A stretch of DNA of 64,000 nucleotides from an uncultured Phycisphaeraceae bacterium (lineage in GTDB: Bacteria > Planctomycetota > Phycisphaerae > UBA1845), in assembly GCA_964569425.1 (NCBI GenBank), contig CAZMVD010000007.1:1477-65476 (forward strand). The letters are read 5' to 3'. Below, one piece after another: positions 3,618 through 20,108 of this stretch. Position numbers and translations under genes: made by a program. Each line of letters starts with the position of its first letter. Within the stretch, counting starts at the first letter, position 1. The notes beneath the pieces were generated by a model. It did not search any database. It was not told where the DNA came from and saw nothing but the letters and a program-made list of their open reading frames with translations.

Positions 3618-5303
3618 ATGAAACGAACGATGAACCGCCGAACGAAAATCCTGCTTGCGGCTTTCGGCACGCTGGTGGCCGGCGCTTTCGTTACGCGCGT
3701 GGTTTATCCCGCGTGGATCGAACCGCTGGTGACGATCGAGGAGCGCATCGCGTCGGCGCGCGAGACCCTTGAACAGTTGGAGGATCTGGAGGCGCGGGCG
3801 GAGCAGGCCAAACGTCAGTATCGCCGGTTGGCGGAACGGGCGGGGGCGATGGACCTGACTTCGGTGGCCAACAGCGTGCACGCGCGCTTGAATGACTTGA
3901 TTCTCAAGCATCGGCTGGAGGAGGCGAGCGTGGTTCCCAGTCGGGGCACCAGCGATCGCAAGACGGGTCTGGAGCGCATGCTTATTTCCGTGTCCGCCAC
4001 GGGCAGCCTGGAGGCGGCGTTGGGGTTTCTGCGCGACGCGGTGGAGTTGCCGCAGCTCCTGCGGGTCGGCAACGTGACGCTGTCGCCGACCCGATCGGGC
4101 AAGACGAGCAAGAAGCAGGAGCGTGTGACGGTTCGTATGCCCATCGAGGTGCTGGTGCTGCCGCAACAGAAGATGCTGGGCGAGCGGCTGGTCGCCGCTG
4201 ATTTTCATCAGCCGGAGACGGTGGTGCGGCATCAGGGGCGGGACTATTCGTCGATCTGGAAGCGAACGCCGTTTTCGGAGTTTGAGCCCTTGCCGCCGCT
4301 GGTGGCAAATGCGGGGCGCGAGGTCAATGTGGAGCAGGGCAAGCCGGCCTATCTGCAAGCCTCGGCGACCGGCGGCGACGGCAGATACACTTACACGTGG
4401 TCTCCGGCGGAAGGGATCAGTTCGACCTCGGGCGCGAAAGTGACGGTGGACACGGCGGAGGTGCGCACGCAGGTCTATTCGCTGACGGTGACCGACGAGA
4501 GCGAGAACAGCGCCACCGCCACCGTGAATGTGACCATTCGGGAGCCTGCACCGGTCGTGGTGCGGAACGATCCCCCTCCGCCTCCTCCTCCGCCGCCGGG
4601 TCCGAAGCGTTGGCCGGACAACAAGTTCATGCATTTGGCGATGGCGCTGATGCGGAGTGATTCGGCGAGCCAGCGACACGAGTTTATTGTGCAGAATACG
4701 CGGACCAATGAGCGGACCTATCACGCCCTGGGCGAGGAATTCGACGGCGGCGAGTTGGTATTTGTGCATCCGCGCGGGGGGTTGGTGCGTAGGCATGGAG
4801 AGTATTTCGTTTATCCGCTGGGCGGGAAGCTGGATCAGGATATGCCGGTGGATGCCGCGGCCCATTTTCCTGATCTGCAGCGGGTGGCGAGCGAGTTGCG
4901 GCTGGCGGAACAGCAAGCGCCGGCCGAGGTGCCGGAGGGCCCCGATGAGGCCGGGCTTGTTCCCGAAGCGGTTGGGACGGACGGGCCGGCGGCGGGGGTG
5001 ACCGAGGGGGGAGCCGCGGGGTCGCCGGGGGTGGATACGGGCGGCGCCGGCTCCGATGGCGCGCCACCGCAGGGGCCTGTGCCGAGTGAGGGGAGTAAGG
5101 ACCGTGCGGCGCGGCCCACCGGCTCGGCCAAGGCGACGCCGCAGGTCACCGAGGGTGCGACGCCTGCCGGGGAGACGCCGGATGCAGGCACGCGGGAGGC
5201 GCCGTCCACGGAGCCGAAGGCGGAAACCGGTGACGGTGAGGGCAAGAACACGACCCGGCCCGGGGCGCGCACGCCTACCCGGCGACGTCCCAGACCTCGA
5301 TAG
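3618..5303 (+). CDS. GspM/PilO-like bitopic membrane protein with an appended Ig-like domain, poly-Pro stretch and disordered tail
   Basis: N-terminal TM helix ILLAAFGTLVAGAFV, then coiled coil (RETLEQLEDLEARAEQAKRQYRRL), then a PilO/GspM-like alpha/beta segment (MLISVSATGSLEAALGFLRDAVELPQLLRVGNVTL). Then YTYTWSP...YSLTVTDESENSATATVNVTI, PPPPPPPPPGP and a Pro/Gly/Glu/Thr-rich tail. Confidence 0.6.
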   Translation: MKRTMNRRTKILLAAFGTLVAGAFVTRVVYPAWIEPLVTIEERIASARETLEQLEDLEARAEQAKRQYRRLAERAGAMDLTSVANSVHARLNDLILKHRLEEASVVPSRGTSDRKTGLERMLISVSATGSLEAALGFLRDAVELPQLLRVGNVTLSPTRSGKTSKKQERVTVRMPIEVLVLPQQKMLGERLVAADFHQPETVVRHQGRDYSSIWKRTPFSEFEPLPPLVANAGREVNVEQGKPAYLQASATGGDGRYTYTWSPAEGISSTSGAKVTVDTAEVRTQVYSLTVTDESENSATATVNVTIREPAPVVVRNDPPPPPPPPPGPKRWPDNKFMHLAMALMRSDSASQRHEFIVQNTRTNERTYHALGEEFDGGELVFVHPRGGLVRRHGEYFVYPLGGKLDQDMPVDAAAHFPDLQRVASELRLAEQQAPAEVPEGPDEAGLVPEAVGTDGPAAGVTEGGAAGSPGVDTGGAGSDGAPPQGPVPSEGSKDRAARPTGSAKATPQVTEGATPAGETPDAGTREAPSTEPKAETGDGEGKNTTRPGARTPTRRRPRPR

Positions 5304-5406
5304 AAGGCAGATCCCGATGTGGAACGACAGGAGGATTCGACGCGAGACTTGCGGCGTCGATTTGTGGCTTGTGCCGGACGATTCACCCAGACAGGGAAGA
5401 CCAATC

Positions 5407-7527
5407 ATGTTTCCAAGATCCGAGCGCATGTTCGCGAAGGCCGGCTCGATGTTTGCATTGCTGGTCGGGTTGATGGGGTTCGGTGCTTCGCCGCTGGTGG
5501 GCGTTGCGCAGGAGTCGCCCCCGACACCGCGACAGGCGCCGCGGGTCCGCAAGCAGGCGTCGCCGCCGCGGACCACGCCGCAGCCGAAGACGCCGTCGCC
5601 CGAGCCGGAACCTTCGAACGATGGTGCGGAGACTCCTGCGGAGCCGGTGCCGGATTCGCCGGACAAGGTTGTGATTCCGCCGGAAGTTCAGAAGAAGATC
5701 GATGAGATGCTGCAGGAGAAGCCCCAGCCTGCGGACGAGCCGGAACCGGCGGTCCAGCCCGCATCGAAGACACCGCAGCAGATTGCTGCGGAACGGGCCG
5801 AACAGCGACGGCAGGCGCGGTTGCGTGCGACAGGCCAGCAAGATGACCAGGCGACCACGCCGCCGCAGCCCGGCGCGCACCTGGCTCCGAATCCGTTTGC
5901 GGGGGGAGGGCAACCGTCGAGGCCTGGGACGCAGGCGCCGGGTAACAAGATCGAGATTCCGGCTTCGACCGAACGTGCGTCACCGCCGGAGCAGCGCAAG
6001 TATTCGTTCAGCATCAAGGACGCGGGGTATGACGTGCTGATCGAGGGCATAGCGCGCGAGACGGGGCTGGGGGTGATCGGCGAAGCGCCGCCCGACGGGA
6101 AGGTGACGTTCGTGACGGAAGAGCAACTGACATTCGATCAACTTCTGGACCGGGTGCGCATGTTGCTTTTCAACTACAAGCCGCTGGAACCGTACTGGCT
6201 GCTGCGCCGTACCACGCACCTGGAAGTCATCCGCGTGAATGACTATCTGCGGGTGATGCCCGCGGACCGGATGTTTCGGGGCGTTGCCGAGTTTCGGTCG
6301 GCCGCGCTGCCTCCGTCGGAATTGGTGCTGGTGATTTTCACACCGACCACCGGGGCGCTTTCGGAACTGAACCAAGTGCGCGATTTCATGCCGGATTATG
6401 TGCGCGTTACGCCGCTGGACGATCAGAATTCGGTGGCGATCTACGCGCTGGTGAGCGACGTGGAGAAGTACCTGTGGCTGGTGGACTTTTTCACGGGGCG
6501 CAAAGGCGACCCGCGCAAGCTGGAGATCATCGAGGTCAAGTTCATTACGCCGACGGAGGCGAACGAGAAGCTTATGTTGCTGATGTCGGCGGATGCGACC
6601 AAGCAGCCGGGACGTGCGGCTGCGATGCCGCGGGTGCGTCCCGGTGGGCCGAGCCCGTTGGACGGCATACCTGCGCCGGAGGTGAGCATCGTTCCCGAGG
6701 ATGCGCAGGGTGTTCTGATCGTGCGGGCGATGCAGGACAAAATCGACGAGATCAGGCGGTTGCTTCCTTATGTAGACGTGAACACGACGGTTAACTACCT
6801 GCCGGTGGTGATCCCGGTGCGGAATACCGATCCGCAGGCCTTGGTGGGCACGGTGCAGCAGATTCTGGGTGCGGGGGATCCTTCGACGGGGATGCCGGTT
6901 CCGGGGGGAGCGCGTCCCGTTCGGCCTCGTCGGGGCGGCCGGGCTCCGGCGGGCGCCGCTGCGTCGGTGTCGGCGGCGGACGTCACGCTGATACCGCATC
7001 CGTCCATTTCGGCGATCATCGCGACGGGTCCGGACGAGGCGGTGCAGCGGGTGCGCGAGCTGGTTCAGCTCTTTGACGTGAAGGGACAGGTGGGGCCGCT
7101 GCGGATCGCGCTGACCCATACCGATGCGGACACGGCGGTGTCGACGGTGACGCAGATCCTGCAGGGTGCGGTTCCGGGGACGACGACGCGCGGCGTTCCG
7201 ACGGGTGCCATATCGGTGTCACAGGTGGTGCCGGATCCTTCGGGTACGGCGATCTGGTTTACGGGATCGGAGAAGGATCTGGAGCTTGCGAAGCGGGTGC
7301 TGGCGGACATTGACGTGGCGGTGGAGCCGGCGCGGCTGCACATCGTACGGCTGGTGAACCAGCGGCCATCGTTTGTGGCGGCGATTCTTTCGCAGGTGGA
7401 CAGCGGGCAATTGAGTCCGTCGGCGACGCCGTCGCCCACCACGCGGGGGGGGGGGGCGGCGGCGACCGGTGGCGGCACCGGCGGGCCAGCCGGGTGGCGC
7501 AGCAGGGAAGTTTACGCCGGACGATGA
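5407..7527 (+). CDS. Barrel-less secretin N-domain array protein, 5' segment; probably one gene with 7469..14377
   Basis: ATG 5407 gives a signal peptide (MFAKAGSMFALLVGLMGFGASPLVGVAQE). The ORF-track start at 5056 would overlap the upstream gene by about 250 nt. Pro-rich spacer, N0/STN-like module (YSFSIKDAGYDVLIEGIARETGLGVIG..GKVTF..LTFDQLLDRVRMLL), then about 5 secretin N-domain-like units. The frame ends 70 nt after a G12 run. Confidence 0.7.
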   Translation: MFPRSERMFAKAGSMFALLVGLMGFGASPLVGVAQESPPTPRQAPRVRKQASPPRTTPQPKTPSPEPEPSNDGAETPAEPVPDSPDKVVIPPEVQKKIDEMLQEKPQPADEPEPAVQPASKTPQQIAAERAEQRRQARLRATGQQDDQATTPPQPGAHLAPNPFAGGGQPSRPGTQAPGNKIEIPASTERASPPEQRKYSFSIKDAGYDVLIEGIARETGLGVIGEAPPDGKVTFVTEEQLTFDQLLDRVRMLLFNYKPLEPYWLLRRTTHLEVIRVNDYLRVMPADRMFRGVAEFRSAALPPSELVLVIFTPTTGALSELNQVRDFMPDYVRVTPLDDQNSVAIYALVSDVEKYLWLVDFFTGRKGDPRKLEIIEVKFITPTEANEKLMLLMSADATKQPGRAAAMPRVRPGGPSPLDGIPAPEVSIVPEDAQGVLIVRAMQDKIDEIRRLLPYVDVNTTVNYLPVVIPVRNTDPQALVGTVQQILGAGDPSTGMPVPGGARPVRPRRGGRAPAGAAASVSAADVTLIPHPSISAIIATGPDEAVQRVRELVQLFDVKGQVGPLRIALTHTDADTAVSTVTQILQGAVPGTTTRGVPTGAISVSQVVPDPSGTAIWFTGSEKDLELAKRVLADIDVAVEPARLHIVRLVNQRPSFVAAILSQVDSGQLSPSATPSPTTRGGGAAATGGGTGGPAGWRSREVYAGR
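7445..7456 (+). repeat. G12 homopolymer tract at the frame break between ORFs 5407..7527 and 7469..14377
   Basis: Twelve consecutive G counted at 7445-7456, the longest G run I saw in the window. The upstream ORF is in frame 1 and the downstream ORF in frame 2, so a tract of 11 G (or 14) would fuse them. Confidence 0.95.
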
Positions 7528-10500
7528 GCAGGGTCGGCTGTACGTGCTGTGCACGGACTCGGAGTGGGAGGCGTACGGTAAGGTCATTTCGGATCTGGAG
7601 AATGAGACGGCGCTGCGCGAGTTTGTGCTCTTGCCGGTCAAGAACATTCCGGTGGACGAAGCGCTGAACAAGATCGCGGCGTTGATTCCTTTGAGTGCTG
7701 CCGGGGTGGCGACGGCGCCGGGGGTCGCCGGCAAGGAGGCGACCAAGATCCGCTGCGAGACGACGGCGGACGGAATCCTGGTCCTTGGGGCTAACGAGAC
7801 AGAGATTCAGTCGATGCGGGAGCTGCTGGCGGTGTTCGATCATGCCAGCGACATCGAAGAGCGGACGTTTGAGATCAAGTTCGCCGACCCGGCGGAGGTG
7901 AAAGCCGCGGTAGAGGCGTTGTTGACGGAGGGGCCGGCTACCACGACGCCGACTGCGGGGGCGCGGCGCGCGCGCGGCGCGGCGCCGCGTGATCCGTCGT
8001 TGGGCGCAGCGTCCACGGCGGCGCTGACCATCGTGCAGGTGGACACGCGGCTGATCGTCAAGGCGTCGCCGTCGGTCATGCAACAGGTCGCTGCTTACAT
8101 CGAACAGTTCGATGTCCGCGCCGACAAGCGGACGGTGCGGGTTTATGAGAATTTTCCGCCCGGAGCGGATATTGACGCCATCGCCAGCACGCTTTCGACG
8201 GTGTTGGGGGGGAGCAGTTCGCGCGGGGCGGCGGCGCCGCGGCCCACCGCTCGGCAACCGGGCAGTGCGCCGAGCGGTCCGGAGGGTCCGCAGTTCATCC
8301 CGCAGCCGGCGACGGGCAAGCTGATTGTCATTGCGCAGCCGTTCATGTTCGAGGAGATCGAAGAGCTGCTGAACATGCTGCGGAAGACGGAGGTGACCGA
8401 GCCCACTTTGGTGGAGTACGTGCCGATCAAATATGCCGATCCGACCGAGTTGGTGCAGAGCATTGAGCCGATTCTGACGGTCAAGGTTCGTAATCTCATC
8501 CGGTCGGGTGAAGTGACTGAGTCCATGGTTGAGGATCCGGCGGCGGGGGGCGTGCGGGCGCCGCGGGTTCGGGTTCCGGGGGCGGCCACATCAAACGACC
8601 GACCGTATCACCTTGCGGCGGATGTGCGTAACAAGCGCGTGGTGGTGGTGGCGACGCGGAAAATCATCGACGCGGCGAAGGAGTTGATCGGCGATTTCGA
8701 CACGCGGGCGGAAGTGCCCGGGGTGGTGTTCGAGTTTATCGAGGTCAAGCACGTGGATCCGGCGCAACTGGTGGAGCAACTGGATCCGTTGCTGGCGTTG
8801 AAGGTTCAAGAACTGGTGCGCGGGGGCGAACTTGCGGATGAGCCGGACGCCTCGGCCCCGGGGGGTGCGGCCAAGGGGGCGGTGCGCATGCCCGGCCGGC
8901 CGATCCTTGATTCGCGGCAGCGTTACCACATCGCGGCCGACGAGCGCAACCGGCGGATCGTGGTGGCGGCGGCGCAGCCGGTGGTGGATGAGGCGCGGTC
9001 GCTGGTGGCGATGTTCGACAAGCCGGACAGCAAGGACACGCGCATTGAGGTGCGCACCGTGGCGATGCAGCACGGGGATCCGGTGGAGGTGGCGGAGAAG
9101 ATCGAGCCGCTGCTGTCGATGAAGGTTCAGCAGTTGGTGTACGCGGGCGAGTTGGCGGAGGAGGGCGGCGTGACGGCAACGCCCGGCGCCGTAACCCCGG
9201 GGCGGCCGCTGAAAATGCCGCGGGCCGGGGGGGCCAGCAAGCGATACCACATGGAGCCGGACCAGCGGAACAAGCAGATTGTTATTGCGGCGCCGACGGC
9301 GGTGATCGACGAGGCGGTCAAGCTGATTGCGGAGTTTGATAAGCCGTCGGATGCGTCCAAGCTCGTTTTCGAAACCGTGGTGCTGCACAACGCCGACCCC
9401 AATGACATGGTCAAGACCATCAAGGAGATGATCGGCGCTCCACAGCGGGCGGTGACGACCCGACGACCGGGGGTGCCGGCCGCGCCGGTGCCGGAGGCGA
9501 TTCTGACTTCGTCGCTGGCCATCGCCGCGGCCCCCGGCGGGGGGGCGGTGGTGCTTCAGGGTCCGGCGGAAGAGGTGGCGCAGGCGAAGGAATGGGTGGG
9601 GCATCTCGATTCCATGGCGACCAGCGGTCGGCAGATCAAGATTTACGAGATCAAGTACGCCGACACCAAGACGCTGGTGGACATCATCATGAACGTGGTG
9701 GATAGCGCGAGCCGCGAGGCTCCGAAGCGCGGCGCGCTGCCTCGCGGGCTGGGCAAGGAGAGCGAGGAGGAGGACTTTTTTGAGACTTCGATCACCCGGA
9801 TCGGCAAGGATGTGTACATCAAGGCGGATTTGATCGCGGACACGATGGTGGTGGTGGCCGGTCCGGCGAAGATCACCGAGGTGGACGCGATCATCGCGCA
9901 GATGGACACCAAGGAGACGGAGGAGGTCACCAAGAAGCCGGTGGTGCCGCGTGAATACATCGACCTGCAATACGCGACGGCCAGGGACGCGGCGGACGCG
10001 CTGGATGCGATTCTGAAGGACCGATGGGAATCGAGCGAGGATCGTCCGAAGGTGACCACGGGGTTGTTCGGGGAGACGCTGATCGTGTCGCACCCGGACG
10101 AGTCGCGGCTGGCGGAAGTACGCGAGCTGGTGGCGACGCTGGTGGACAAGCCGGACCCGAAGAAGTTCCGTGAGACGCGGCGCATGATCACGTCGCCGTC
10201 GAACATTCCGCCGCGCGATCTGATCATGATGCTGCAACTCAACAATCCGGACATTGAGTTCGAGCTGATCGACGGTACGCCGCAGGACGAGGACAAGTTT
10301 ATTATCGAGCGGGTCAAGGCGCAGCCACCGCCGCCGGCGGTGAAGCCGCAGGCCGAGGGGCGGCGGCCGGCGCCGGCCGGTTCGCCCCAAGCGGACGCCG
10401 GTTCTGCGTTGATCCCTGCGCCGCTGCGCGTTGCGGCGACTGCGGTGTTGTGTGCGGCGCTGGCCCAGGTGCCGGAGGGGGCGGAGCCGGAAGGGGTACC

Positions 10501-13500
10501 TCCGCCGGAAGAGGAAGAAGAAATCGAACCGGAGCCGGAACTGAGTCAGGCGCAACTGGATGCGATGTTGCGGCAGGCACAGGAAGCGCTGATCCGGCAG
10601 GGAGTGCAGCCGAAGGAATCGCCCGAAAAGAAGAAAAGCGAAGGGGAGAAATCGGAAGAACAGGAGCGGTCGAAGTCCATCGGCAAGGAGTTCAAGGGTC
10701 AGAAGATCAAGGCGGTCATCGACACCAAGACCGGCGCGGTGACTCTGATCGGTCCCGAGGGTGTCGTGGAGCAGATCCCGGACTTGATCAAGGAGGTGGA
10801 GGAACAATTGAAGGACGCACCGGCGCCGCCGGATATCCGCATTTACCGCGTGCGCTACATCGACGTGTTCACGGCGCAGGACATTCTCGAAGAGATGTTC
10901 AACGCCACGCGTCAGCAGATGGCGCAGGTGCAGGCGGCGCAGCGGCAGGCGCAGCAGATGGCGATTCAGCAGCAGCGGGCGGCCCAACAGGCGGCTCAGC
11001 AGGCGGCCCGTCAGCAGGAGCGGGGTGGCGAGGGCCAACAGCCCGGGCGACAGCCGCAGCAGCCTCAGCCGGTGCCGATTCCCGAGTTGCCGGCCACTGC
11101 GGTGCGCGTGTATCCCAACCCGCGCGACCGCACGCTGATTCTGCGGGCGGATACCAATCAGTACCCGGCGATCGAGGAGTTGCTGGCGACCATCGACCAG
11201 CCCAAGCCGTATGACAATCTTTATCGCGTGATTCCGCTCAAGAAGCTCAACGCGACCGACGTGGAGGCGCTGCTGCGCGACTGGCTGGGACTAGACGAAT
11301 CGAAGGCACGGAGCGGGGCGCGCGGCCCGCGGGGCGCATCGCCTGAAGCGAGCGGCGCCGGCGGCCAACTGCCCAAGACCATCGTTCAGGAGACCAAGAC
11401 CGGTGTGGTCGAACTCGGGGTGGATCCGCAGGACATCAAAATCTCCAGCAACCTGGAGACCAACAGCATTCTGGTCATGGCTCCGCAAGCGGCGCTGGAT
11501 TACGTTGAAGAATTGATCGCGGACCTCGAGAGCCAGGACGTGGCGAAGCGTGAGTGGAAGAGCTATCAGCTTCAACATGCTGACGTGGAGGAGGTGGCCG
11601 ACTATCTGGCCACGCGCATCAACCAGGGTCGCCCCGGCGCAGGGGCGACGCGGGGCAAGGGTGCCCCCGGCGGGTCGGCGGATGGAGGCGGATCGCTTAA
11701 TACGGCGAGTTTCATTCCTTATCCGCGTCTGCAGATGCTTTCGGTGCAGGCCACGGCCGAGCAGATCGCGGAGGTCGATAAGTTGATCGTAGAGCTGGAT
11801 GTGCCGGCCGGGGGTGAGAACTTTCAGTCGGTGGTGCTTGCGCATGCCGACGCCAAGCTGGTGGCGGACACGTTGGATTCCATGTTCGGCGGCGGGGGTG
11901 GAGCGCGGGGGGCGCGAGGGGCGGCTCCCACGGCGTCCGCGGTGGCCAAGTTCATCGGCGAGGAGGGGGGGCGGGTGCTCTTTTTCAGCGCGCCGGAGCG
12001 GCTGCACGAGCGCATTCACGTGGTCATCAAGGATATCGAAGAGCAGTCGCAGGGGCGCGATCAACTACGGGTGATTCAATTGCAATATGCCCGCGCCAGC
12101 ATGGTGGCCGATGCGATCGATTCGGCCTATGGGGCCGGCCGGCGGACGGGGGCGGCGCGGGGCAAGGGGGCCGCGGGCGGCGGGGCGCGGGTCAGCGTGA
12201 CCGCCAGCGATGCGACGCGGCAGCTTTTCGTGATGACGGACGACGCGATGTTTGCGGAGGTGGAGTCGCTGGTGAAGTCGCTGGACACGGAGCGGGGCAT
12301 CGGCTTCGACTTTCGCATTTATCCGCTGAAGCACGCGGACGCGCGGGCGGTGTACACGACGATGAACAAGCTGATCACCGACTATCTGCGCCGGTTGCCG
12401 CCGCAGACGCCGATCGACCCGTTCAGCGTGGAGGTGGACGACAAGGCCAACGCGCTGGTGGTGCTGGGCAGCCCGACGATTTTCGGGTTTGTGGAGGATT
12501 CGCTGAAGACTATCGACACGCCGGCCAACGCGCCGAGCCCGCCGGGCGTACTGATGGTGGTGCTCAAGACGGCGGATGCCACGGAGGTGGCACAGAATAT
12601 CAATCGGTTGTGGAGCACCAAGATCAAGGAGGGCGAGGTGCCGCCCACGGCCGAGGCCAACCGCACGCTCAATATGGTCATCGTCCGCGGCACGCAGAAG
12701 CAGATTGACGACATTCGCAGCCAGGTGATCGACCCGCTGGAACAGCAGGCGGCGGCGCAACTTCTCACCGAGACCATCACCCTCAAACACGCGCTGGCCG
12801 AGGACGTGGCTGAGTCGCTGACTCGCATCTTCGACGACAAGCGCAAGGCGCTGCAGACCACGGGCGGGCGGGGGCCGGGCGGGGCGGCTTCGCCGCTGGA
12901 TCTGGCGGTGGTGGTTACGCCGCTGGTGAATACCAACCAGGTGGTGGTGCAGGCGAACGAGGCGAACCTGGGGTTCATCAAGGAGCGGATTGCGCAGCTC
13001 GATCTGCCGGAGTTTGCGGATACTGCGGTAACCACGACGAAGGTCTATGCGGCGGTCGCGGCCGATCCCAACGCGGTGGTGAACATGATCCGCGAGTGGA
13101 GCCGCACACAACAGCAGACCGCGGGCGCCAACCGCCGGATGTCGCAGAAGGACGTGATCGTCGCGGTGGCCGATCCGCTGACGCAGACGGTGATCGTCAC
13201 GGCGAGCGAGTCGAATCACCAGCGGGTCAAGGAGATGATCGACGGGCTGGACGCGGAAAGCGGCGAGGTGAAGCCGACGGTGCGGACGATCAAGATCAAG
13301 TACGCCGACGCATACGCGATTCAGGAGGCGATCGGCAAGCTGTTCCGCGGGGACGGGCGCAATCCGCGCGAGCAGGTCATTGCCACGGCCGATGCGAATT
13401 CCAACAGCGTGGTGGTTTCGGCGAGCAGCGACAACCAACGGCGGGTGGAGGAACTCATCGCCACGCTCGACGCGCCGGACGCGGCGCAGCGCGACGTGCA

Positions 13501-14377
13501 GGTGATCCGTTTGGAAAACGCCGACGCGGCGGCGGTGGCCAAGACGCTGGACGAGATCTTTGTGAAGTCCGCGCCAAAGTCGGCCGGGGCGCAGGCGCCG
13601 CCGATTTCGATTTCTGCGCTGGAGGGGTCGCGGGCGGTGGTGGTGAAGAGCAAGCCGGAGGATTTCACGCGGATCGAGGCGGCGGCGAAGGCGATGGACA
13701 GCCGTGACGCCCTGGCCGACGCGCCCAAGATCATCCTTCTCCAGCATGCCCGGGCCGATCAAATCGCGCACATGCTCCAGCAGACGTTTGAGCAGCAGCG
13801 GGGCGGCGGGCGGGCGAGCAAGTCGCCGCCGACGGTGGTGGCCAACGAGCAGATCAACGGTCTGGTGGTGCGGGCCGAGCCGGCGGACCTGGCGGGCATC
13901 GAGAGCCTGGTTGCGCAGCTCGACAGTGACAAGATTCCGCCGCAGTCGCGGTTCAAGGTTATTGAGCTGGACGCGGGTGTGAACCTGGCCGACCTGGCTG
14001 AAAAGGTAGAGCTGACTATCAACGAGGCGGCCAAGGCGCAGGTGCCGCCGGGCAGTCGGCAGGCGCCGCCGAGCATCACGGTCATGGCGGACGCACGGAC
14101 CGGCATGCTGATCGTGGGCGGGTCGCCCTCGTTGTTTGCTGATGCTGAGGAGATGGCCAGGACGATTGTAGATAAGGGACCGAAGGGCAACACGGTCACT
14201 TCGATCTTCAAGCCGCAGAACGTGGCGGTGGAGGATATTCAGCGGTTGATCGACCAGTTGACGAACCCGGAGGCCGCGAGTGAGAGCGGGCGGCGAAGTG
14301 GCAGCGGTAGCGGCACGCGCGGGGGCACGACACGTCCTACGAGTCGGCCAAGACCGCGTACGACCCCGCAGCGTTGA
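7469..14377 (+). CDS. Barrel-less secretin N-domain array protein, 3' segment (about 23 tandem N-domain units, central acidic/Lys and Gln-rich spacers, no secretin C-domain)
   Basis: 2302-aa ORF with no signal peptide of its own. Recurrent unit: beta-alpha (e.g. VEYVPIKYADPTELVQSIEPIL, IRIYRVRYIDVFTAQDILEEMF, VRTIKIKYADAYAIQEAIGKLF), a variable linker, then hxxDxRTNxLhV..xxhxxhxxLIxxLD (e.g. VIATADANSNSVVVSASSDNQRRVEELIATLD). Ends with a half unit (VTSIFKPQNVAVEDIQRLIDQL) and a Ser/Gly/Arg/Pro tail. Confidence 0.75.
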   Translation: MAAPAGQPGGAAGKFTPDDEQGRLYVLCTDSEWEAYGKVISDLENETALREFVLLPVKNIPVDEALNKIAALIPLSAAGVATAPGVAGKEATKIRCETTADGILVLGANETEIQSMRELLAVFDHASDIEERTFEIKFADPAEVKAAVEALLTEGPATTTPTAGARRARGAAPRDPSLGAASTAALTIVQVDTRLIVKASPSVMQQVAAYIEQFDVRADKRTVRVYENFPPGADIDAIASTLSTVLGGSSSRGAAAPRPTARQPGSAPSGPEGPQFIPQPATGKLIVIAQPFMFEEIEELLNMLRKTEVTEPTLVEYVPIKYADPTELVQSIEPILTVKVRNLIRSGEVTESMVEDPAAGGVRAPRVRVPGAATSNDRPYHLAADVRNKRVVVVATRKIIDAAKELIGDFDTRAEVPGVVFEFIEVKHVDPAQLVEQLDPLLALKVQELVRGGELADEPDASAPGGAAKGAVRMPGRPILDSRQRYHIAADERNRRIVVAAAQPVVDEARSLVAMFDKPDSKDTRIEVRTVAMQHGDPVEVAEKIEPLLSMKVQQLVYAGELAEEGGVTATPGAVTPGRPLKMPRAGGASKRYHMEPDQRNKQIVIAAPTAVIDEAVKLIAEFDKPSDASKLVFETVVLHNADPNDMVKTIKEMIGAPQRAVTTRRPGVPAAPVPEAILTSSLAIAAAPGGGAVVLQGPAEEVAQAKEWVGHLDSMATSGRQIKIYEIKYADTKTLVDIIMNVVDSASREAPKRGALPRGLGKESEEEDFFETSITRIGKDVYIKADLIADTMVVVAGPAKITEVDAIIAQMDTKETEEVTKKPVVPREYIDLQYATARDAADALDAILKDRWESSEDRPKVTTGLFGETLIVSHPDESRLAEVRELVATLVDKPDPKKFRETRRMITSPSNIPPRDLIMMLQLNNPDIEFELIDGTPQDEDKFIIERVKAQPPPPAVKPQAEGRRPAPAGSPQADAGSALIPAPLRVAATAVLCAALAQVPEGAEPEGVPPPEEEEEIEPEPELSQAQLDAMLRQAQEALIRQGVQPKESPEKKKSEGEKSEEQERSKSIGKEFKGQKIKAVIDTKTGAVTLIGPEGVVEQIPDLIKEVEEQLKDAPAPPDIRIYRVRYIDVFTAQDILEEMFNATRQQMAQVQAAQRQAQQMAIQQQRAAQQAAQQAARQQERGGEGQQPGRQPQQPQPVPIPELPATAVRVYPNPRDRTLILRADTNQYPAIEELLATIDQPKPYDNLYRVIPLKKLNATDVEALLRDWLGLDESKARSGARGPRGASPEASGAGGQLPKTIVQETKTGVVELGVDPQDIKISSNLETNSILVMAPQAALDYVEELIADLESQDVAKREWKSYQLQHADVEEVADYLATRINQGRPGAGATRGKGAPGGSADGGGSLNTASFIPYPRLQMLSVQATAEQIAEVDKLIVELDVPAGGENFQSVVLAHADAKLVADTLDSMFGGGGGARGARGAAPTASAVAKFIGEEGGRVLFFSAPERLHERIHVVIKDIEEQSQGRDQLRVIQLQYARASMVADAIDSAYGAGRRTGAARGKGAAGGGARVSVTASDATRQLFVMTDDAMFAEVESLVKSLDTERGIGFDFRIYPLKHADARAVYTTMNKLITDYLRRLPPQTPIDPFSVEVDDKANALVVLGSPTIFGFVEDSLKTIDTPANAPSPPGVLMVVLKTADATEVAQNINRLWSTKIKEGEVPPTAEANRTLNMVIVRGTQKQIDDIRSQVIDPLEQQAAAQLLTETITLKHALAEDVAESLTRIFDDKRKALQTTGGRGPGGAASPLDLAVVVTPLVNTNQVVVQANEANLGFIKERIAQLDLPEFADTAVTTTKVYAAVAADPNAVVNMIREWSRTQQQTAGANRRMSQKDVIVAVADPLTQTVIVTASESNHQRVKEMIDGLDAESGEVKPTVRTIKIKYADAYAIQEAIGKLFRGDGRNPREQVIATADANSNSVVVSASSDNQRRVEELIATLDAPDAAQRDVQVIRLENADAAAVAKTLDEIFVKSAPKSAGAQAPPISISALEGSRAVVVKSKPEDFTRIEAAAKAMDSRDALADAPKIILLQHARADQIAHMLQQTFEQQRGGGRASKSPPTVVANEQINGLVVRAEPADLAGIESLVAQLDSDKIPPQSRFKVIELDAGVNLADLAEKVELTINEAAKAQVPPGSRQAPPSITVMADARTGMLIVGGSPSLFADAEEMARTIVDKGPKGNTVTSIFKPQNVAVEDIQRLIDQLTNPEAASESGRRSGSGSGTRGGTTRPTSRPRPRTTPQR

Positions 14378-14404
14378 CACTACGCCGCCGCGTTGACGGG
14401 ACCG

Positions 14405-14623
14405 CTTCCCCCTTTCCAAGGGGGGATACAGGGGGGTTGGCATGGGCGGCGCGCCACCGCCTTCAGCGTTTCGGCAGCCGGGGGCGTTGGCCAAGCGCAG
14501 AGTTTTCGCCGTCGGCGCTGTTTCGCCTCCAGTGAATCGGCGCTGGAGGCGGTAGGTATCGCGCGAGGTCTTCGCGGGCGACGCAACCTCCCCCTGCCCC
14601 CTCCTTGGTAAGGAGGGGGGAAG
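14405..14623. repeat. MITE-like element: imperfect ~40-bp terminal inverted repeats, each containing a C5/G5 hairpin, around a structured core
   Basis: Left arm 14405-14440 cttccccctttccaaggggggatacaggggggttgg. The reverse complement of right arm 14585-14623 is cttcccccctccttaccaaggagggggcagggggaggttg. Internal 9-bp stem cgcctccag(14524-14532)/ctggaggcg(14543-14551). No credible ORF inside. Confidence 0.6.
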
Positions 14624-14949
14624 TGAGGCGGCGTCTTGGGAGCGCAACGTGGAGCGTCGAGCGCACCTGTACGGTGCGTATCGGCAAAGAACTTATCCCC
14701 ATGACTGAATCGCGGGCGTCCGCGCGGGCTGCCCTTGACGCTTCGCGTAAAGGGGAGCAAGCCCGCGGCGCGCGTCGATATTGGGATAGGTCCTGAAGTG
14801 CGTATTGGCGAAAAATCACAGCCCCCGTTCGGTGGGGCGGAGGGCGGGTATTTTTTCGGTTACCGGCGAGCGCCGGTCGGGTATCATACGGCGCGGCGAC
14901 CGTGTCGCGGGCCGGATCTGAGAGTCGGGCGAACCAGGGGACAGAACGG

Positions 14950-17900
14950 ATGAACGCGAAGCGAATGGAGACGCGATCGAGGAGTCCGCGCGGCCGCAGA
15001 ATGACATTGGCAGCCGCGTGGTGTATCGGGTTTGCCCTGACGGTTGGGTCGAGCCGCGCGCAGACTGAGCCCACCCCGCCGCCGCGGGAGCAGTCTCCGG
15101 CCGGGGAGCGGCCTGCGCAAGAAGACGAACGCCGCCAGCCCGTGCACGTGCCGGCTGCGCCGGCGCCCGATCGAGTGAGCGAGCTTATCGGCCGGTTGGA
15201 TCCGCAGACGCTGAGCCGGCTGGTGGGGGCGGATATCAAGGTCGAGTTCGTCGGCGGGCAGGTGATCCTTCAGGGGCCGGAAGAGGCGGTCAAGACGCTG
15301 GAGTTGATGATCAAGGCGCTCGACGCCGAGGTGGAAATGCCCGAGGTGCGGGTGGTGACGGTCAGCGAGCGCGACGCGAAGGAAATCGCACGCACGGTGC
15401 AGGAGGCACTGCGCATCGTATTGGATCGCGAGAATCAAAGAGAAGTAGAGCAGGTTACATTGACGGCGCTGACGTCCAACATCCTGCTGGTCTCGGCGCT
15501 TGCCGACGACATCGACTTCGTCCTTTCCGTCATCGATGATGTTGACTCGGTTCCTGATCCGTTGGGCAAGATCGAACTCATGCGCTTCGAGGTGAAGAAC
15601 CGCCGCGCCAGCGACGTGGCCAAGGAGCTGCAGAAGGTCTTTGAGCAATTCCAGAAGGCGCAGGGGATGCCGCTGGACAAGAGCAAGCTCCAAATCATTC
15701 CCAACAACGCCAACAACACCATTACGGTGACGGCGCGGGAAAACGAACGCGAAAAGATTGAGGCGCTGATCGCCAACATCGACGTGGCGCCGACGCCCGG
15801 CTGGGGCGAGGTCAAGCTGACCATTTATCCGCTGTTGCACAGCAAGTCCGCTGATCTGGCGAAGGTCATCGAGGACTTGCTCCAGGCGCAGGCCCGGCAG
15901 GGTCAGGCGCGTGAGGCGATGGAAGAGTTCATCTTCCGCCTGCGGATCAGCAAGGCCAGCCCCACCGGCGAACTGACCGAACTGCCGCCCATCGACCTGC
16001 AGAAGCCGACGCGGATCATTCCCGATGACGGCACCAACAGCCTGATCATCGCCACCGTCGAGGAAAACGTCGTTCCCATGGGTGAACTGATCCGCCTGCT
16101 CGACGGCGTGCCCACCGGCGAAGCGATTCATGCGCGGCTGTTTCCCCTGCGCTTTGCCGATGCCGAGACGGTGTCCGAGGCGCTCAAGAAGATGTTCGAC
16201 GAAGGAAAGACATTGCCAGAGGATCCGGACGGCAGCGCGCAGGACGCGGTTCCGGGTACGCCGACCGGCAAGGCGTTGGTGTACAACGTGTCGGTGGTGG
16301 CCGACGTGCGCACCAATACCATTATCATCGCGGGTCGGGACGAGCAGATTCACCTGGCCGAGACGGTGATCGGGCAGCTCGACCAGCCCGCGCGGGCGCT
16401 GAAATTCCCGCTGCGATTGGTGCCGCTGGACTATGCGGACGCGACGCGGGTGGGTCAGTTATTGACCGAGCTTTTCACGAAGCGTCTGGAGGCGGCCGAG
16501 GCGACCAACGCCGGGAAGGCGGCGGTGGAGCGGGAGCGGGTGTTTTTGAGCGTGGACATTCGCAGCAATTCGCTGATCGTCTCCGCGTCGGAGGAGAACT
16601 TCGACGAGATGGTGTCGATCGTTGACCAGTTGGACAGCCGGCCGACGAAGCTGTTCGACCAGATCCGCCTGGTGTTGTGCAATCGGATCTCCGCGGTCGA
16701 CGTGAAGACCAAAATCGACGAGTTGTGGAAGCGCAAGGCGGAACTGCGGCGCACGCAGGAACTGCTGGAAGATCTTCCGGTGGTGGTGGCGGACGAGCGC
16801 AGCAATGCGCTGGTGGTGGCGGCGAGCCTGGAGGACTATGAGGAGATCAAGCGGCTGGTGGATGCGCTGGAGGCGCAGCCGCTGATCGACGACACGCAAC
16901 TGTTCAAGCTGCAATATGCGGATGCCAACCTGCTGGCCGACATGCTTGACAAGCTGTTCGACGGCATCGCTTCCGCGTCTGAGACGTTCAAGAAGCCCAC
17001 GCTGCTGCCGGACGTGCGGACCAACGCCATCGTGGTGGCGGCGACGCGCGACGCCATGGAACGGGCGGCGGACCTGATCCGCCGGCTGGACGTGGAGGCC
17101 GGCCCGCAGTCGGCGCAGATCAAAGCGTATCCGCTCAACTACGGCTCGGCGGCGAAGATGGCACCGCGCATGCAGAAGCTGTTCGACGCGCGGGCGGAGG
17201 GTCAGGACGCGGCGCGCAGCACGCCGATTGTGATTCTGGCGGAGGAGTCGTCCAACACGCTGGTGAGCAGCGCTTCGCGCGACGATCACGACGTGATTGC
17301 CGAACTGCTTGGCGTGCTCGACAAGCCGTCCAACATCGCGCGGCAGTTTGAGATATTCCCGCTCAAGCGCGGCAAGGCGGCGCGGGTGGCGGAGAAGCTG
17401 GAGCAGCTTTTCGCCACGCAGGTGGAGGGCGGCTCGGGTCGGGCGGACGCCATCGCGGTGCAGGCGGACGAGCGCACCAACGCCATCATCGTCTGGGCTT
17501 CGCCGTCGGAGATGCTCAACATCGGCGAGGTGATTGCGCGGCTGGACACCGCGACGCCCGCGGTGGAGATGATGGTCAAGGTGATTCAGCTCAAGCAGGC
17601 GCTGGCGCAGGACTTTGCCACGCTGCTGGAGGAGACACTGGTGGGCGAGGGCGGGGGCGGGGACGATGAACGGGCGGTGATCGTTTCGTTTCTGGAGAAG
17701 GACGCGCAAGGGCGGGAGATCGAACGCAAGCTGCTGAAGCAGGACATCAAGATCAAGCCCGACCCGCGGACCAATTCGCTCATGGTGTTCGCGCCGGCGG
17801 ACAGCATGTCGATGCTGGAAGCGATGATCGTCGACTTCGACCGCATTCGCCCGATCCGTTCGGAGCTGCGGTTGTTTCCGCTGATCAACAGCGACGCGAA

Positions 17901-19446
17901 GACGATGGTGGAGAAACTGACCAACCTGTTCAAACCCACGGAAGGGGGGGAGGGCGAAACCGCGCGGCAGTTCAGTTTCGGTGGTGCGTTTTCCGACGTC
18001 GAGTTTGCCAGCGTGGGTCAGGAACTGCGTTTTGAAGCGGATGAGCGCACCAACACGATCATTGCGGCGGGGGCGGAAATCGACCTGCGGATGATCGAGG
18101 AACTGGTCCGCTATCTTGATGCGCAAGAGGCGGAAGACCGGATGACCGGGGTTTATCAGGCCAAGTTTCGGCCCGCGTCGGACATTGCCCAGGCGATCAA
18201 GGGGTTCAATGAGCAGGAGCAAAACGTTTTGGGGGAGGGGGACGACATGGAGGCGCGCCTGCGGCGACAGGAGCGGCAGGTTTCGGTGGAGGCGGTGGGC
18301 GACGTGGAGAAGGGGAGTAGCAGTCTGCTTTACGGCACGAGCCGCAAGAGTTACTCACGGACGATGGAGATGATCGAGCAGATCGATCGTCCCGAGCCGC
18401 AGGTGATGATATCGGTGCTGATCGCGGAGGTCACGCTGAGTAACAACGTGGAGCTGGGCATTGAGATCGCGGGCCAGGAGCTGGACTTTTCGCGTGGGGC
18501 GGTGGTGGGTCCCAACGGCGTGATTCAGGGCAGCGACTTCGACTGGATCAGCGGGACGGACCTGGGCGCCGCGGGCGTGGGGCTGGGTGGGTTCAACTTT
18601 ACGATTACGGGGGAGGATTTCAGTTTCCTGCTTCACGCCCTGCAGGCGGACAGCCGTCTGGAGGTGCTTTCCCGCCCGATCCTTATGGTTCGCAACGGCG
18701 AGGAGGGCAAGATCACGATCGCGGACGAGGTGCCGATTGTGGAGTCGTCGCAGCAGAGCGATACGGGATCGGTGCGGTCCAACATTACGCGGCAGGACGT
18801 GGGCATTGTGCTTACCGCCACGCCGCACATCAGCCCGGACGGTTACGTGACCATCAAATTGACGCAGGAAATCTCCAACATCAGCGGCGACACGCTGCAG
18901 CTTACCGAAGGCGTGACTTCGCCCATATTCTCGAAGCGCGAGGTGGATACGAACGTTACGGTGCGCGACGGGGAGACGGTGATCATCGGCGGACTGATTC
19001 AGTCGCGCGATTCGCAGGGAGAGAACAAGGTGCCGATCCTGGGCGATATTCCCTATCTGGGGGTGCTGTTTCGCTCGACCAGCGTGAGCAAGTCGCGTAC
19101 GGAGTTGATGGTGGTGCTGACGGTTGACGTGCTGCGGACCGACGCCGACGTGCGCGACATGTCGGTCACGGAACGCGATCGGTTCATGTTGCCTGATAAC
19201 ATTCTGCAATCACCGTTCATGCAGGGGTTACGCATTCTGCCGGAGGAGTCATCCCTGGGACCGGTGTCGCCGAAGGCGCGCCCGGGTTCGCCGGCAGCGC
19301 CGCGTCCTGTTGAACAGCCGGGTTCGCCTGCTGGTCGGCCGCGCATTTACGGGCCGGCAATTTCAAGGCCGGCCGCGGCGGATACGGTGCGCGCCCCGGT
19401 GTACGGTCCGCCCGTGGTGCGTAAGGAGCCGGAGTTACTGCCCTGA
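14950..19446 (+). CDS. gspD: Secretin (GspD/PilQ family) with about 12 N-domain units and a C-terminal beta-barrel secretin domain
   Basis: Signal peptide RRMTLAAAWCIGFALTVGSSRAQ (start could be 14950, 14965 or 15001). N-domain units such as ARLFPLRFADAETVSEALKKMF...VVADVRTNTIIIAGRDEQIHLAETVIGQLD. Secretin domain VMISVLIAEVTL...LEVLSRPILMVRNGEEGKITIADEVPIV...GIVLTATPHISPDGYVTIKL...VRDGETVIIGGLIQ...KVPILGDIPYLGVLFRS. Confidence 0.9.
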   Translation: MNAKRMETRSRSPRGRRMTLAAAWCIGFALTVGSSRAQTEPTPPPREQSPAGERPAQEDERRQPVHVPAAPAPDRVSELIGRLDPQTLSRLVGADIKVEFVGGQVILQGPEEAVKTLELMIKALDAEVEMPEVRVVTVSERDAKEIARTVQEALRIVLDRENQREVEQVTLTALTSNILLVSALADDIDFVLSVIDDVDSVPDPLGKIELMRFEVKNRRASDVAKELQKVFEQFQKAQGMPLDKSKLQIIPNNANNTITVTARENEREKIEALIANIDVAPTPGWGEVKLTIYPLLHSKSADLAKVIEDLLQAQARQGQAREAMEEFIFRLRISKASPTGELTELPPIDLQKPTRIIPDDGTNSLIIATVEENVVPMGELIRLLDGVPTGEAIHARLFPLRFADAETVSEALKKMFDEGKTLPEDPDGSAQDAVPGTPTGKALVYNVSVVADVRTNTIIIAGRDEQIHLAETVIGQLDQPARALKFPLRLVPLDYADATRVGQLLTELFTKRLEAAEATNAGKAAVERERVFLSVDIRSNSLIVSASEENFDEMVSIVDQLDSRPTKLFDQIRLVLCNRISAVDVKTKIDELWKRKAELRRTQELLEDLPVVVADERSNALVVAASLEDYEEIKRLVDALEAQPLIDDTQLFKLQYADANLLADMLDKLFDGIASASETFKKPTLLPDVRTNAIVVAATRDAMERAADLIRRLDVEAGPQSAQIKAYPLNYGSAAKMAPRMQKLFDARAEGQDAARSTPIVILAEESSNTLVSSASRDDHDVIAELLGVLDKPSNIARQFEIFPLKRGKAARVAEKLEQLFATQVEGGSGRADAIAVQADERTNAIIVWASPSEMLNIGEVIARLDTATPAVEMMVKVIQLKQALAQDFATLLEETLVGEGGGGDDERAVIVSFLEKDAQGREIERKLLKQDIKIKPDPRTNSLMVFAPADSMSMLEAMIVDFDRIRPIRSELRLFPLINSDAKTMVEKLTNLFKPTEGGEGETARQFSFGGAFSDVEFASVGQELRFEADERTNTIIAAGAEIDLRMIEELVRYLDAQEAEDRMTGVYQAKFRPASDIAQAIKGFNEQEQNVLGEGDDMEARLRRQERQVSVEAVGDVEKGSSSLLYGTSRKSYSRTMEMIEQIDRPEPQVMISVLIAEVTLSNNVELGIEIAGQELDFSRGAVVGPNGVIQGSDFDWISGTDLGAAGVGLGGFNFTITGEDFSFLLHALQADSRLEVLSRPILMVRNGEEGKITIADEVPIVESSQQSDTGSVRSNITRQDVGIVLTATPHISPDGYVTIKLTQEISNISGDTLQLTEGVTSPIFSKREVDTNVTVRDGETVIIGGLIQSRDSQGENKVPILGDIPYLGVLFRSTSVSKSRTELMVVLTVDVLRTDADVRDMSVTERDRFMLPDNILQSPFMQGLRILPEESSLGPVSPKARPGSPAAPRPVEQPGSPAGRPRIYGPAISRPAAADTVRAPVYGPPVVRKEPELLP

Positions 19447-19529: not shown

Positions 19530-20108
19530 ATGAACTGGTCCGACACCATGAAGTTGGGACATCGTCGTATTGGGCTGCTGGTCGGGGTCGCTGCGGGTTT
19601 GTTGTTGTCGACAGCCTGCGTCTCTTCGGACCCTGCGCGCGGCAAGTCCGGGGGGGCCGAGAGCCGGTCGCGCGCTTCGCGATCTTCGCGGCACGCGGAT
19701 TTGCCGGTGCGTCAGGTGGTCTGCATTTATGAACAGCGCCCGTGGTTAAACCTCGATGCATCGGGCGACCGAGACCCCGAAGGTCTGCGATACCGTGCCT
19801 TTCTCGATGCCGGCGCGACGCGCGGCGAATTGCGGAACGGGATGTTCCACGTCGAGCTGTATGTGGTCGAGCGGGATGCCACCGGGGCGATCGCCCGAAG
19901 ATTGGTCAGTGACTGGCACTTTCCCACCGAGGAGGTCAACACGGTTAATTCCGGGCTGCTGGGGCGCGGTTACCATATACAGCTTCGGTGGGCCACGAAG
20001 GCGGTTGCCGGCAAGGAGATCGAGATTATTACGGTCTTCGAGGATAGCGAGGGGCGAAAGACCCGTTCGGGCACCAAGCGTCTCAGGGTTCCCAGGTATA
20101 CCTCCTGA
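19530..20108 (+). CDS. Hypothetical lipoprotein downstream of the secretin
   Basis: Signal peptide with lipobox (RRIGLLVGVAAGLLLSTAC). 84 nt after the secretin stop. Its stop overlaps the next start (TGATG at 20106-20110). Confidence 0.6.
   Translation: MNWSDTMKLGHRRIGLLVGVAAGLLLSTACVSSDPARGKSGGAESRSRASRSSRHADLPVRQVVCIYEQRPWLNLDASGDRDPEGLRYRAFLDAGATRGELRNGMFHVELYVVERDATGAIARRLVSDWHFPTEEVNTVNSGLLGRGYHIQLRWATKAVAGKEIEIITVFEDSEGRKTRSGTKRLRVPRYTS

Follow-up and report, generated by a model that had tools for sequence, protein, structure and literature searches.

Do an array of secretin N-domains and the secretin encoded directly after it form two proteins, or one protomer cut inside a single domain? 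Secretins are usually taken as single-chain protomers with few periplasmic domains. In the window, the 64-kb stretch of DNA from a Phycisphaerae-type bacterium analysed here, a forward-strand gene (5407 to 14377) encodes an array protein with a predicted signal peptide and about 27 Secretin_N units, lacking a secretin C-domain. As sequenced it is two open reading frames (5056 to 7527 and 7469 to 14377), scoring 83 and 521 bits against Secretin_N respectively; once one G of a G12 run is removed, it becomes a single gene of 2,989 aa, in which a custom HMM gives 26 unit matches. The secretin gene follows on the same strand (14950 to 19446, start ATG at 14950) and encodes 1,498 aa, with 369 bits for Secretin_N and 161.4 bits for the Secretin domain (PF00263, cut-off 27.5, residues 1230–1395). 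By Pfam, both proteins carry periplasmic-type N-domains of the Secretin_N family (PF03958). The first folded region of the array looks N0-like by eye, and Pfam gives no match there even at an E-value of 10; nor does Pfam find an N0 domain in the secretin reading frame itself.

Both the domain architecture and where in a unit the cut falls can be read directly. The folded part of the array protein closes with a half-unit, half A (14192 to 14260, forward strand), made of beta1 (TVTSIF) and alpha1 (VEDIQRLIDQLT), and the C-terminus reads ...GPKGN-TVTSIFKPQNVAVEDIQRLIDQLT. It is followed in the translation by a basic Ser/Gly/Arg/Pro tail of 38 residues and the stop codon at 14375–14377 (together 14261 to 14377); the array end is as the sequence-only reading of this DNA had described it, in coordinates and in sequence. 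After an intergenic gap of 572 nt (14378 to 14949) the secretin opens, on the forward strand, with a signal peptide predicted by eye (14950 to 15060; basic n-region, h-region MTLAAAWCIGFALTVGSS, cleavage between SRA and Q) and a Pro-rich spacer (15061 to 15168) that AF2 gives as disordered. Two short helices come next (DRVSELIGRL and PQTLSRLVG, 15169 to 15231, AF2 pLDDT 78–91), their motif conserved in orthologs, and then strand-strand-helix: half B (ADIKVEFVGGQVILQGPEEAVKTLELMIKALD, 15232 to 15324), assigned from a partial Pfam match and AF2 as beta2, beta3 and alpha2 of the split unit. The earlier claim that the secretin opens with the second half of a unit was right in that half B is there; it does not stand bare, the two conserved helices preceding it. 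The first complete unit begins VRVVTVSERDAKEIARTV..., and the remainder (15325 to 19446) holds about 12 complete Secretin_N units, the C-domain (approximately 18637–19134) and a Pro-rich C-terminal tail. More than 120 orthologs of the secretin (1,420–1,840 aa, all stand-alone) share the N-terminal motif, and in 113 of them the N-termini in the signal-peptide region are homologous.

Profile searches support a single domain divided between the two chains. The last 68 aa of the array protein alone gave no match to Pfam Secretin_N. The mature secretin N-terminus alone matched positions 18–66 of the 69-position profile with 16.1 bits, below the cut-off of 28.2 bits. When the two halves from the window were joined by a short linker, the match extended over positions 1–66 and rose above the cut-off (30.8 bits, E-value 3.5e-7). 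Joined halves from two other loci also exceeded it (L009, 29.7 bits; L019, with the linker deleted, 32.4 bits), and those from L048 gave a near-full-length match below it (22.7 bits). A custom half-unit HMM gave half B 10.3 bits, where the best of 1000 shuffles reached 6.3; half A was not significant against shuffles with this model. The conservation of both halves is a direct observation. Pairwise identity is 0.35 for half A and 0.34 for the complete neighbouring unit; for half B it is 0.48, against 0.46 for the units that follow. The linkers are unconserved (0.14–0.19): the array tail keeps its composition and not its sequence (0.19) and is disordered according to AF2, and the secretin spacer (0.14) is anywhere between 30 and 250 aa long in the orthologs. 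Conservation of the half-unit arrangement had been set beforehand as a condition for the idea, and no split locus lacks either half.

Structure prediction with AF2 used artificial cis chimeras, one of 403 aa and a minimal one of 161 aa without other strands. The alignment rows were the window chimera and exact substrings of database proteins; the paired rows are natural cis forms, so it is cis proteins that supply the pairing signal. With mixed alignments MAFFT slipped by one unit or put half A on the first helix of the secretin, so row sets were selected that brought both halves into correct register, and the final alignments were verified. Strand pairing was deduced from DSSP strand state together with pLDDT. 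In the 403-aa chimera half A forms a strand and a helix (pLDDT around 92) and half B scores 90–95. In the minimal chimera the array strand (residues 8–13) is retained with pLDDT of about 91, and its possible partners in this model are the strands of the secretin only. Over both chimeras half B is strand-strand-helix with pLDDT 89–95. The acceptor fold is incomplete: AF2 gives two strands at the secretin start, against three in every full unit. Foldseek comparison of the 403-aa model showed a resemblance to the N-domains of GspD, EpsD, XcpQ and InvG. The minimal model overlays Vibrio vulnificus EpsD over 153 columns with an rmsd of 2.1 Å, with a Foldseek E-value that is not significant because of the 75-aa linker.

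Conservation and structure prediction together suggest that the half-domains snap together and so rejoin both proteins. We think it probable that the two genes jointly encode one giant secretin protomer, cut inside one N-domain, whose halves dock in trans. Each protein would be exported by its own signal peptide, as predicted by eye. The secretin would form the outer-membrane channel with about 12 N-domain rings hanging into the periplasm, a stacking carried over from knowledge of GspD-type secretins. Its first domain would be incomplete, with two short helices and then beta2-beta3-alpha2, lacking beta1. The array protein (approximately 2,990 aa and 27 N-domains) would supply exactly the missing beta1-alpha1 at its end. 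To judge by the AF2 cis chimera, from which docking in trans is inferred, the array strand would join the open edge of the two-stranded sheet of the secretin and the helix would pack alongside, completing one Secretin_N fold and tying the array chain non-covalently to the secretin protomer. The basic tail and the Pro-rich spacer would act as flexible leashes. The outcome would be a continuous stack of around 40 domains, like that of single-chain relatives. Docking in trans, put forward in the sequence-only reading, has gained the conserved halves, the joined Pfam match and the cis chimera, and stands as a prediction.

The same data bear on a rival account, in which the split is a historical scar with no role in docking, and the two proteins are independent or meet via other surfaces. 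The strand-helix of the array would then be the remnant of a truncation, or would cap the last unit of the array itself, and the two helices of the secretin would close its first domain. MAFFT aligned the first of these helices with alpha1 of the array ends; since it resembles alpha1, the domain might close without the helix of the array. That the secretin carries its own alpha1-like helix favours the scar, as do the failure of profile methods to find half A alone and the lack of a visible partner for its strand in the 403-aa model. We nevertheless consider this account unlikely. Across 14 loci and some 37 protein clusters, half A is as well conserved as an entire domain; its strand is still predicted with confidence in the minimal construct, from which the preceding unit is left out; the joined halves reach the Pfam threshold; and both halves occur in order in fused relatives.

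A homolog search that used the C-terminal 499 aa of the array retrieved only short classical secretins and no true orthologs; array orthologs were therefore taken from a protein-representative search and from genome loci. The same junction design is found at 14 split loci, comparing both array ends and secretin starts, and approximately 37 array-only protein clusters end in half A and a basic tail. The junction split is, from these comparisons, ancient and conserved rather than recent, and recent pseudogenisation of the junction is ruled out by the conservation of both halves across loci and clusters. The question whether orthologous loci hold one reading frame or two has a double answer, as both occur. 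Against the 14 split loci there are four loci, and 13 protein clusters, in which the module lies within one in-frame reading frame of 4,000–5,000 aa. The order in these fused forms is half A, tail, a hydrophobic signal-peptide-like stretch, spacer and half B, and the units flanking the junction align colinearly between split and fused forms. Relatives with 27–33% identity are single reading frames of 3,500–5,600 aa with 25–55 units and the secretin domain; the more distant giant secretins are continuous and have neither the junction module nor an internal hydrophobic stretch at that place. Single-chain relatives with and without the module are both directly observed. The window pair, at 2,989 + 1,498 = 4,487 aa, falls within their size range.

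These comparisons support an ancestral single giant secretin, as had been proposed: single-chain relatives exist, the size matches and the cut lies in an alpha1-beta2 loop. Ancestral fission and docking in trans had been posed as alternatives; they are compatible, and both survive. It is possible, though we lean away from it, that the two-gene state is ancestral for the clade and that the module-bearing single reading frames are secondary re-fusions. The internal hydrophobic stretch would then be the decaying relic of a signal peptide rather than a pre-existing feature, which would account for a signal peptide in mid-protein. It has the look of a real signal peptide in one fused clade (basic n-region, AxA-type end) and is degenerate in another, and comparative genomics has established that, in general, adjacent genes fuse more often than genes split. 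In a neighbour-joining tree without support values, all module-bearing forms are one clade nested among continuous giants; that tree requires 3–4 fusions against 2 fissions, and fission takes only one stop codon once the start and signal peptide are in place. Re-fusion concerns history only and is compatible with docking in trans.

The mid-chain signal-peptide-like stretch of the single-chain relatives fits no simple export model, which counts against the main model, and raises a separate question about the export of giant proteins. We also entertain, as rather doubtful, the idea that the junction is a self-contained module that allows a giant secretin to be made as one polyprotein or from two genes, the internal signal peptide being functional. 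It would restart export, or signal peptidase would cut there with the split domain holding both chains together. One stop codon, gained or lost, would be enough for a lineage to toggle between the fused and the split form. On this idea, a weaker module copy within the array (around aa 1590–1800) would give a protomer from three export segments.

The gap between the genes contains a GC-rich hairpin (14597–14619) and two segments absent from L001, a locus 93% identical to that of the window. The sequence-only reading had placed a MITE-like element here. A MITE-shaped insert is indeed present (14688 to 14794, 107 nt), with imperfect 15-nt terminal inverted repeats, the arms 80% complementary, flanked by an 18-nt direct repeat (14674–14691 and 14798–14815); a second copy was not found in the 64-kb window, and metagenome contigs gave no exact 24-mer match to it. 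The gap of a second locus, L002, is unrelated in sequence to that of the window, and more distant orthologs likewise have unrelated gaps. A MITE can be dismissed as the cause of the split, as L001 is split without the insert and the distant gaps are unrelated; the 107-nt segment was inserted into a gap that was there before it. A sigma-70 scan of the gap showed no promoter-like site, a scan that is uninformative for this phylum.

The frameshift in the array gene lies at the G12 homopolymer (7445 to 7456, forward strand, +1), in the alpha1-beta2 loop of a unit, which confirms that it sits at the same position within a unit as the junction. In this sequence the array gene is interrupted there, which counts against a two-gene protomer and would suit a locus in decay, with the junction and the G12 run both lesions of a dying giant gene. 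We regard such decay as very improbable, and for the junction it is already largely refuted. The frameshift is in a run of 12 Gs, a classic site of sequencing error; the array ortholog of L001 is an intact single reading frame of 2,992 aa, reading GCGGGGGG at this site with its frame intact and 4 nt fewer across that stretch; and the junction design is kept in dozens of lineages with intact reading frames and signal peptides. The G12 break, a +1 homopolymer shift that L001 lacks, probably reflects an error or a lesion peculiar to this strain, and probably not a second designed break.

With type II GspD, PulD and XcpQ (and with InvG, PilQ and pIV) the window pair shares a C-terminal Secretin domain and tandem Secretin_N domains of the N1–N3 type. 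It differs from GspD-type secretins in having about 40 N-domains rather than 3–4, in a protomer divided over two genes by a cut inside one N-domain, in the lack of a Pfam-detected N0 and in the lack of adjacent ATPase or platform genes of T2SS, T4P or T3SS; none of the latter lies closer than 10 kb in the window or at L001 or L002. Single-chain giant secretins of Planctomycetota and Verrucomicrobiota (L025–L047, P0147–P0160 and others) have the same unit type and C-domain and a total length of 3,500–5,600 aa; L025–L047 and P0147–P0160 are, unlike the window pair, continuous and without the junction module. A literature search returned nothing on giant or split secretins. In chaperone-usher pili (Fim/Pap), a chain whose fold is incomplete, its sheet open at one edge, is completed by a strand from another chain. 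The likeness to donor-strand complementation is one of mechanism only: the pilus fold is Ig-like and the N-domain here beta-alpha-beta-beta-alpha, a strand and a helix would be donated, and the origin would be gene fission, not subunit polymerisation. Genes split within a domain, with two polypeptides that reassemble, include cyanobacterial rpoC1/rpoC2 and the reverse gyrase and AlaRS of Nanoarchaeum. Those cases are cytoplasmic, whereas here both parts need separate export, and the downstream part has a new predicted signal peptide at the cut. This lineage would then depart from the usual secretin, with a protomer of about 40 domains exported as two pieces and rejoined by a shared domain. It would be a natural case, in the cell envelope, of complementation through a split domain, with a defined interface of roughly 25 + 55 residues, and an assembly route for very long envelope-spanning conduits in the enlarged periplasms of Planctomycetota and Phycisphaerae.

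The neighbours of the secretin and array genes include a PKD-domain protein, a lipoprotein, RNase D and YebC, among others. Downstream of the secretin (19530 to 20108, forward strand) is a conserved lipoprotein with the lipobox LSTAC, 88% identical to the product of the gene that follows the secretin in L001, and 58% identical to its L002 counterpart. It matched no Pfam family and is a candidate pilotin; pilotin genes often follow the secretin in GspD-type loci, as this small gene does. Upstream (3618 to 5303, forward strand) a possible partner in the system is encoded, a conserved protein of 561 aa in which Pfam finds a PKD-like domain (K319L-like_PKD, 31.1 bits) and, weakly, a T2SSM-like N-terminus (E-value 0.067). 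L001 and L002 each have a gene of 558–578 aa in the equivalent position.

Three long ORFs lie on the forward strand (5056..7527, 7469..14377 and 14902..19446). One gene accounts for the first two, interrupted where 12 consecutive G (7445-7456) shift the frame by +1; deleting one G from the run gives a 2,989-aa array protein starting at ATG 5407. In L001, the locus of the nearest relative found (its secretin is 93% identical to that of the window), the array gene is one uninterrupted ORF of 2,992 aa with GCGGGGGG at the site of the run. Two origins are conceivable for the G run: an error in sequencing the homopolymer, or a slipped-strand (phase-variable) tract. Secretin_N is the sole Pfam family in the array protein (83 and 521 bits), in which Pfam detected no secretin C-domain; an HMM made from the window's own units counts 26 of them. 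From ATG 14950 the third ORF encodes 1,498 aa, with Pfam matches to Secretin_N (369 bits) and Secretin (161 bits, residues 1230-1395). Judged by domain content, the system is a secretin, but Pfam detected no N0 domain, and no T2SS, T4P or T3SS genes are linked among the neighbours in the window, L001 and L002 (another homologous locus). We found no description of giant or split secretins in the literature searched.

At its C-terminus the array protein reads GPKGN TVTSIF KPQNVA VEDIQRLIDQLT and then finishes in a basic Ser/Gly/Arg/Pro tail of 38 residues before the stop codon. The secretin begins with a signal peptide (assigned by eye), a Pro-rich spacer, DRVSELIGRL-DPQTLSRLVG and ADIKVEFVGGQVILQGPEEAVKTLELMIKALD, followed by its first complete unit. 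By itself the array end has no Pfam Secretin_N match, and the secretin start has a partial one (profile 18-66 of 69, 16.1 bits, cut-off 28.2). Joined by a short linker, the two ends clear the cut-off: they match the profile from 1 to 66 with 30.8 bits (E 3.5e-7). The joined halves of locus L009 (29.7 bits) and those of L019 with the linker deleted (32.4 bits) also exceed it; L048 gives a near-full-length match below it (22.7 bits). With a custom half-unit HMM, half B (β2-β3-α2, 15232-15324) scored above all 1000 shuffles and half A (β1-α1, 14192-14260) gave no significant score; half A is thus divergent in sequence. These results bear out the sequence-only description of both ends, the array protein terminating in a strand and helix plus tail and the secretin opening with the second half-unit. 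One feature has to be added to it: a pair of conserved short helices that comes before the second half.

Structures were predicted for cis chimeras of the window sequences, using alignment rows from natural single-ORF junctions (paired), array-only ends and secretin-only starts, with the register checked. A 403-aa chimera, in which the junction is preceded by the last full array unit and followed by two secretin units, has a mean pLDDT of 85.4. Half A is predicted as a strand (residues 80-85) and helix (residues 92-103) at pLDDT about 92, and the two helices and half B are at 90-95; the linker of 70 residues comes out as disordered (pLDDT 41-54). In a minimal 161-aa chimera of the two ends only, TVTSIF (residues 8-13) is still assigned as a strand by DSSP (pLDDT about 91), the following helix is at 88 and half B at 87-93. 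Since the only other strands are β2 and β3 of the secretin, strand content implies that the sheet of the minimal model must be three-stranded and shared by both ends, a pairing modelled in a cis construct with the pairing signal coming from cis relatives. The 403-aa model matches N-domains of GspD, XcpQ and InvG. The 161-aa model has no significant Foldseek match, because of its long linker; its alignment with V. vulnificus EpsD, also not significant, is a single one of 153 columns at 2.1 Å rmsd.

More than 120 proteins, all of 1,420-1,840 aa, are close relatives of the secretin; they come from metagenome-assembled genomes of Phycisphaerae and Planctomycetota, and all have the N-terminal motif DRVSELIxxLDPxxLxRLxGADVxVExVGxQVILxGPEEAVxxLELLIRxLD. 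The stand-alone secretins P0002-P0007, P0010 and P0011 (database proteins) are longer, at 1,817-1,843 aa, ~340 aa above the others (~1,500 aa). Scanning one genome for each species gave 79 loci, 14 of them split (secretin identity 33-93%), with an array gene of 2,600-3,050 aa preceding the secretin where the contig allows. The C-terminus of the array protein has one design in all 14: (E/K)MGPxG leads into a strand, next comes a helix of the pattern (E/D)DΦxxLIxxL, and the chain finishes in a basic Ser/Gly/Arg tail. When the last 350 aa of the array protein were searched against 1.8 billion cluster representatives, 409 proteins matched at E < 1e-30, and about 37 among the best 150 are array-only proteins with a matching C-terminus. 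The half-unit arrangement is conserved in orthologs. Across the split loci, mean pairwise identity is 0.35 for half A and 0.34 for the complete unit preceding it, 0.48 for half B and 0.46 for the two units following it, 0.33 for the two short helices, 0.19 for the basic tail and 0.14 for the spacer. By this measure both halves are retained like folded domains. At 11666-11671 of L016, a split locus, the frame stays open past the array stop into the secretin signal peptide, so that one stop codon alone divides the genes, either by chance or through recent fission.

Orthologous loci comprise both one-ORF and two-ORF forms. At 27-33% identity, the relatives have a single ORF of 3,500-5,600 aa, open from stop to stop, that encodes 25-55 units together with a secretin domain; most of them are continuous and featureless at the equivalent place. 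An in-frame junction is present in four loci (L019, L020, L021, L048) and in 13 cluster representatives, in the order half A, basic tail, hydrophobic stretch, spacer, helix, half B; the flanking units of split and fused forms can be aligned colinearly. In one fused clade the hydrophobic stretch resembles a true signal peptide (e.g. RRMTVAGTLPVFFAQVALGMAVAQT). Marks of a cleavable signal peptide (basic n-region, hydrophobic core, AxA-type end) occur mid-chain in L019 (aa 2660-2830), L020 (2585-2745), L021 (2530-2700), L048 (2975-3215) and the database proteins P0176, P0253, P0270 and P0280; in fused forms the stretch comes after about 2,900 exported residues. In a neighbour-joining tree built from the C-region of 112 secretin sequences (573 columns, drawn without support values), module-bearing forms, split and fused, are one clade nested among continuous giants, so the module seems to have arisen once. 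Fused lineages branch first within it, and the split forms are one large clade, with L041 apart. The split state may derive from two fissions, as parsimony favours, or be ancestral with several re-fusions, which the degenerate hydrophobic stretch of one fused clade fits.

The 572-nt intergenic gap aligns with that of L001 apart from two window-specific segments. One, 14688-14794 (107 nt), is MITE-like in shape, with 15-nt imperfect inverted termini and a flanking 18-nt direct repeat. These termini agree with the sequence-only reading of a MITE-like element. The window has no second copy of the segment, and a scan of metagenome contigs gave no exact 24-mer match. As a cause of the split the segment was rejected: L001 is split without it and the L002 gap is unrelated in sequence, which makes it a late passenger.

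We consider it fairly probable that the two proteins are exported separately, each with its own signal peptide, and dock by half-domain donation in trans. The secretin would assemble in the outer membrane and each array chain would complete the first domain of a protomer by donating β1-α1, restoring about 40 domains as in the single-chain relatives. The acidic, Pro-rich spacer and the basic tail would serve as flexible tethers. Donor-strand complementation is the docking principle of chaperone-usher pili, which the proposed docking would resemble by analogy. That the pair descends from, or is equivalent to, one giant secretin is a much firmer conclusion than docking; the evolutionary event resembles other cases of genes split within a domain.

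A second signal-peptide-like stretch, LIPAPLRVAATAVLCAALAQVPEG, lies within the array protein (about 10170-10800, aa about 1590-1800). After it come an acidic spacer, a helix and an element resembling half B, KIKAVIDTKTGAVTLIGPEGVVEQIPDLIKEVEEQL, which Pfam matches weakly (18.6 bits by itself, 20.1 bits when the strand-helix before it is attached). The array proteins P0191, P0248 and P0251 start right at this stretch, and the region may be a relic of a further junction. Directly after the secretin, 19530-20108 encodes a small lipoprotein (lipobox LSTAC) without a Pfam family, 88% and 58% identical to its L001 and L002 counterparts; where it lies and what type of protein it is make it a pilotin candidate. 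Upstream, 3618-5303 encodes a 561-aa protein, possibly an inner-membrane partner, that has a PKD-like domain and, at its N-terminus, a faint resemblance to T2SS-M (E 0.067); L001 and L002 also have an upstream gene of about this size.
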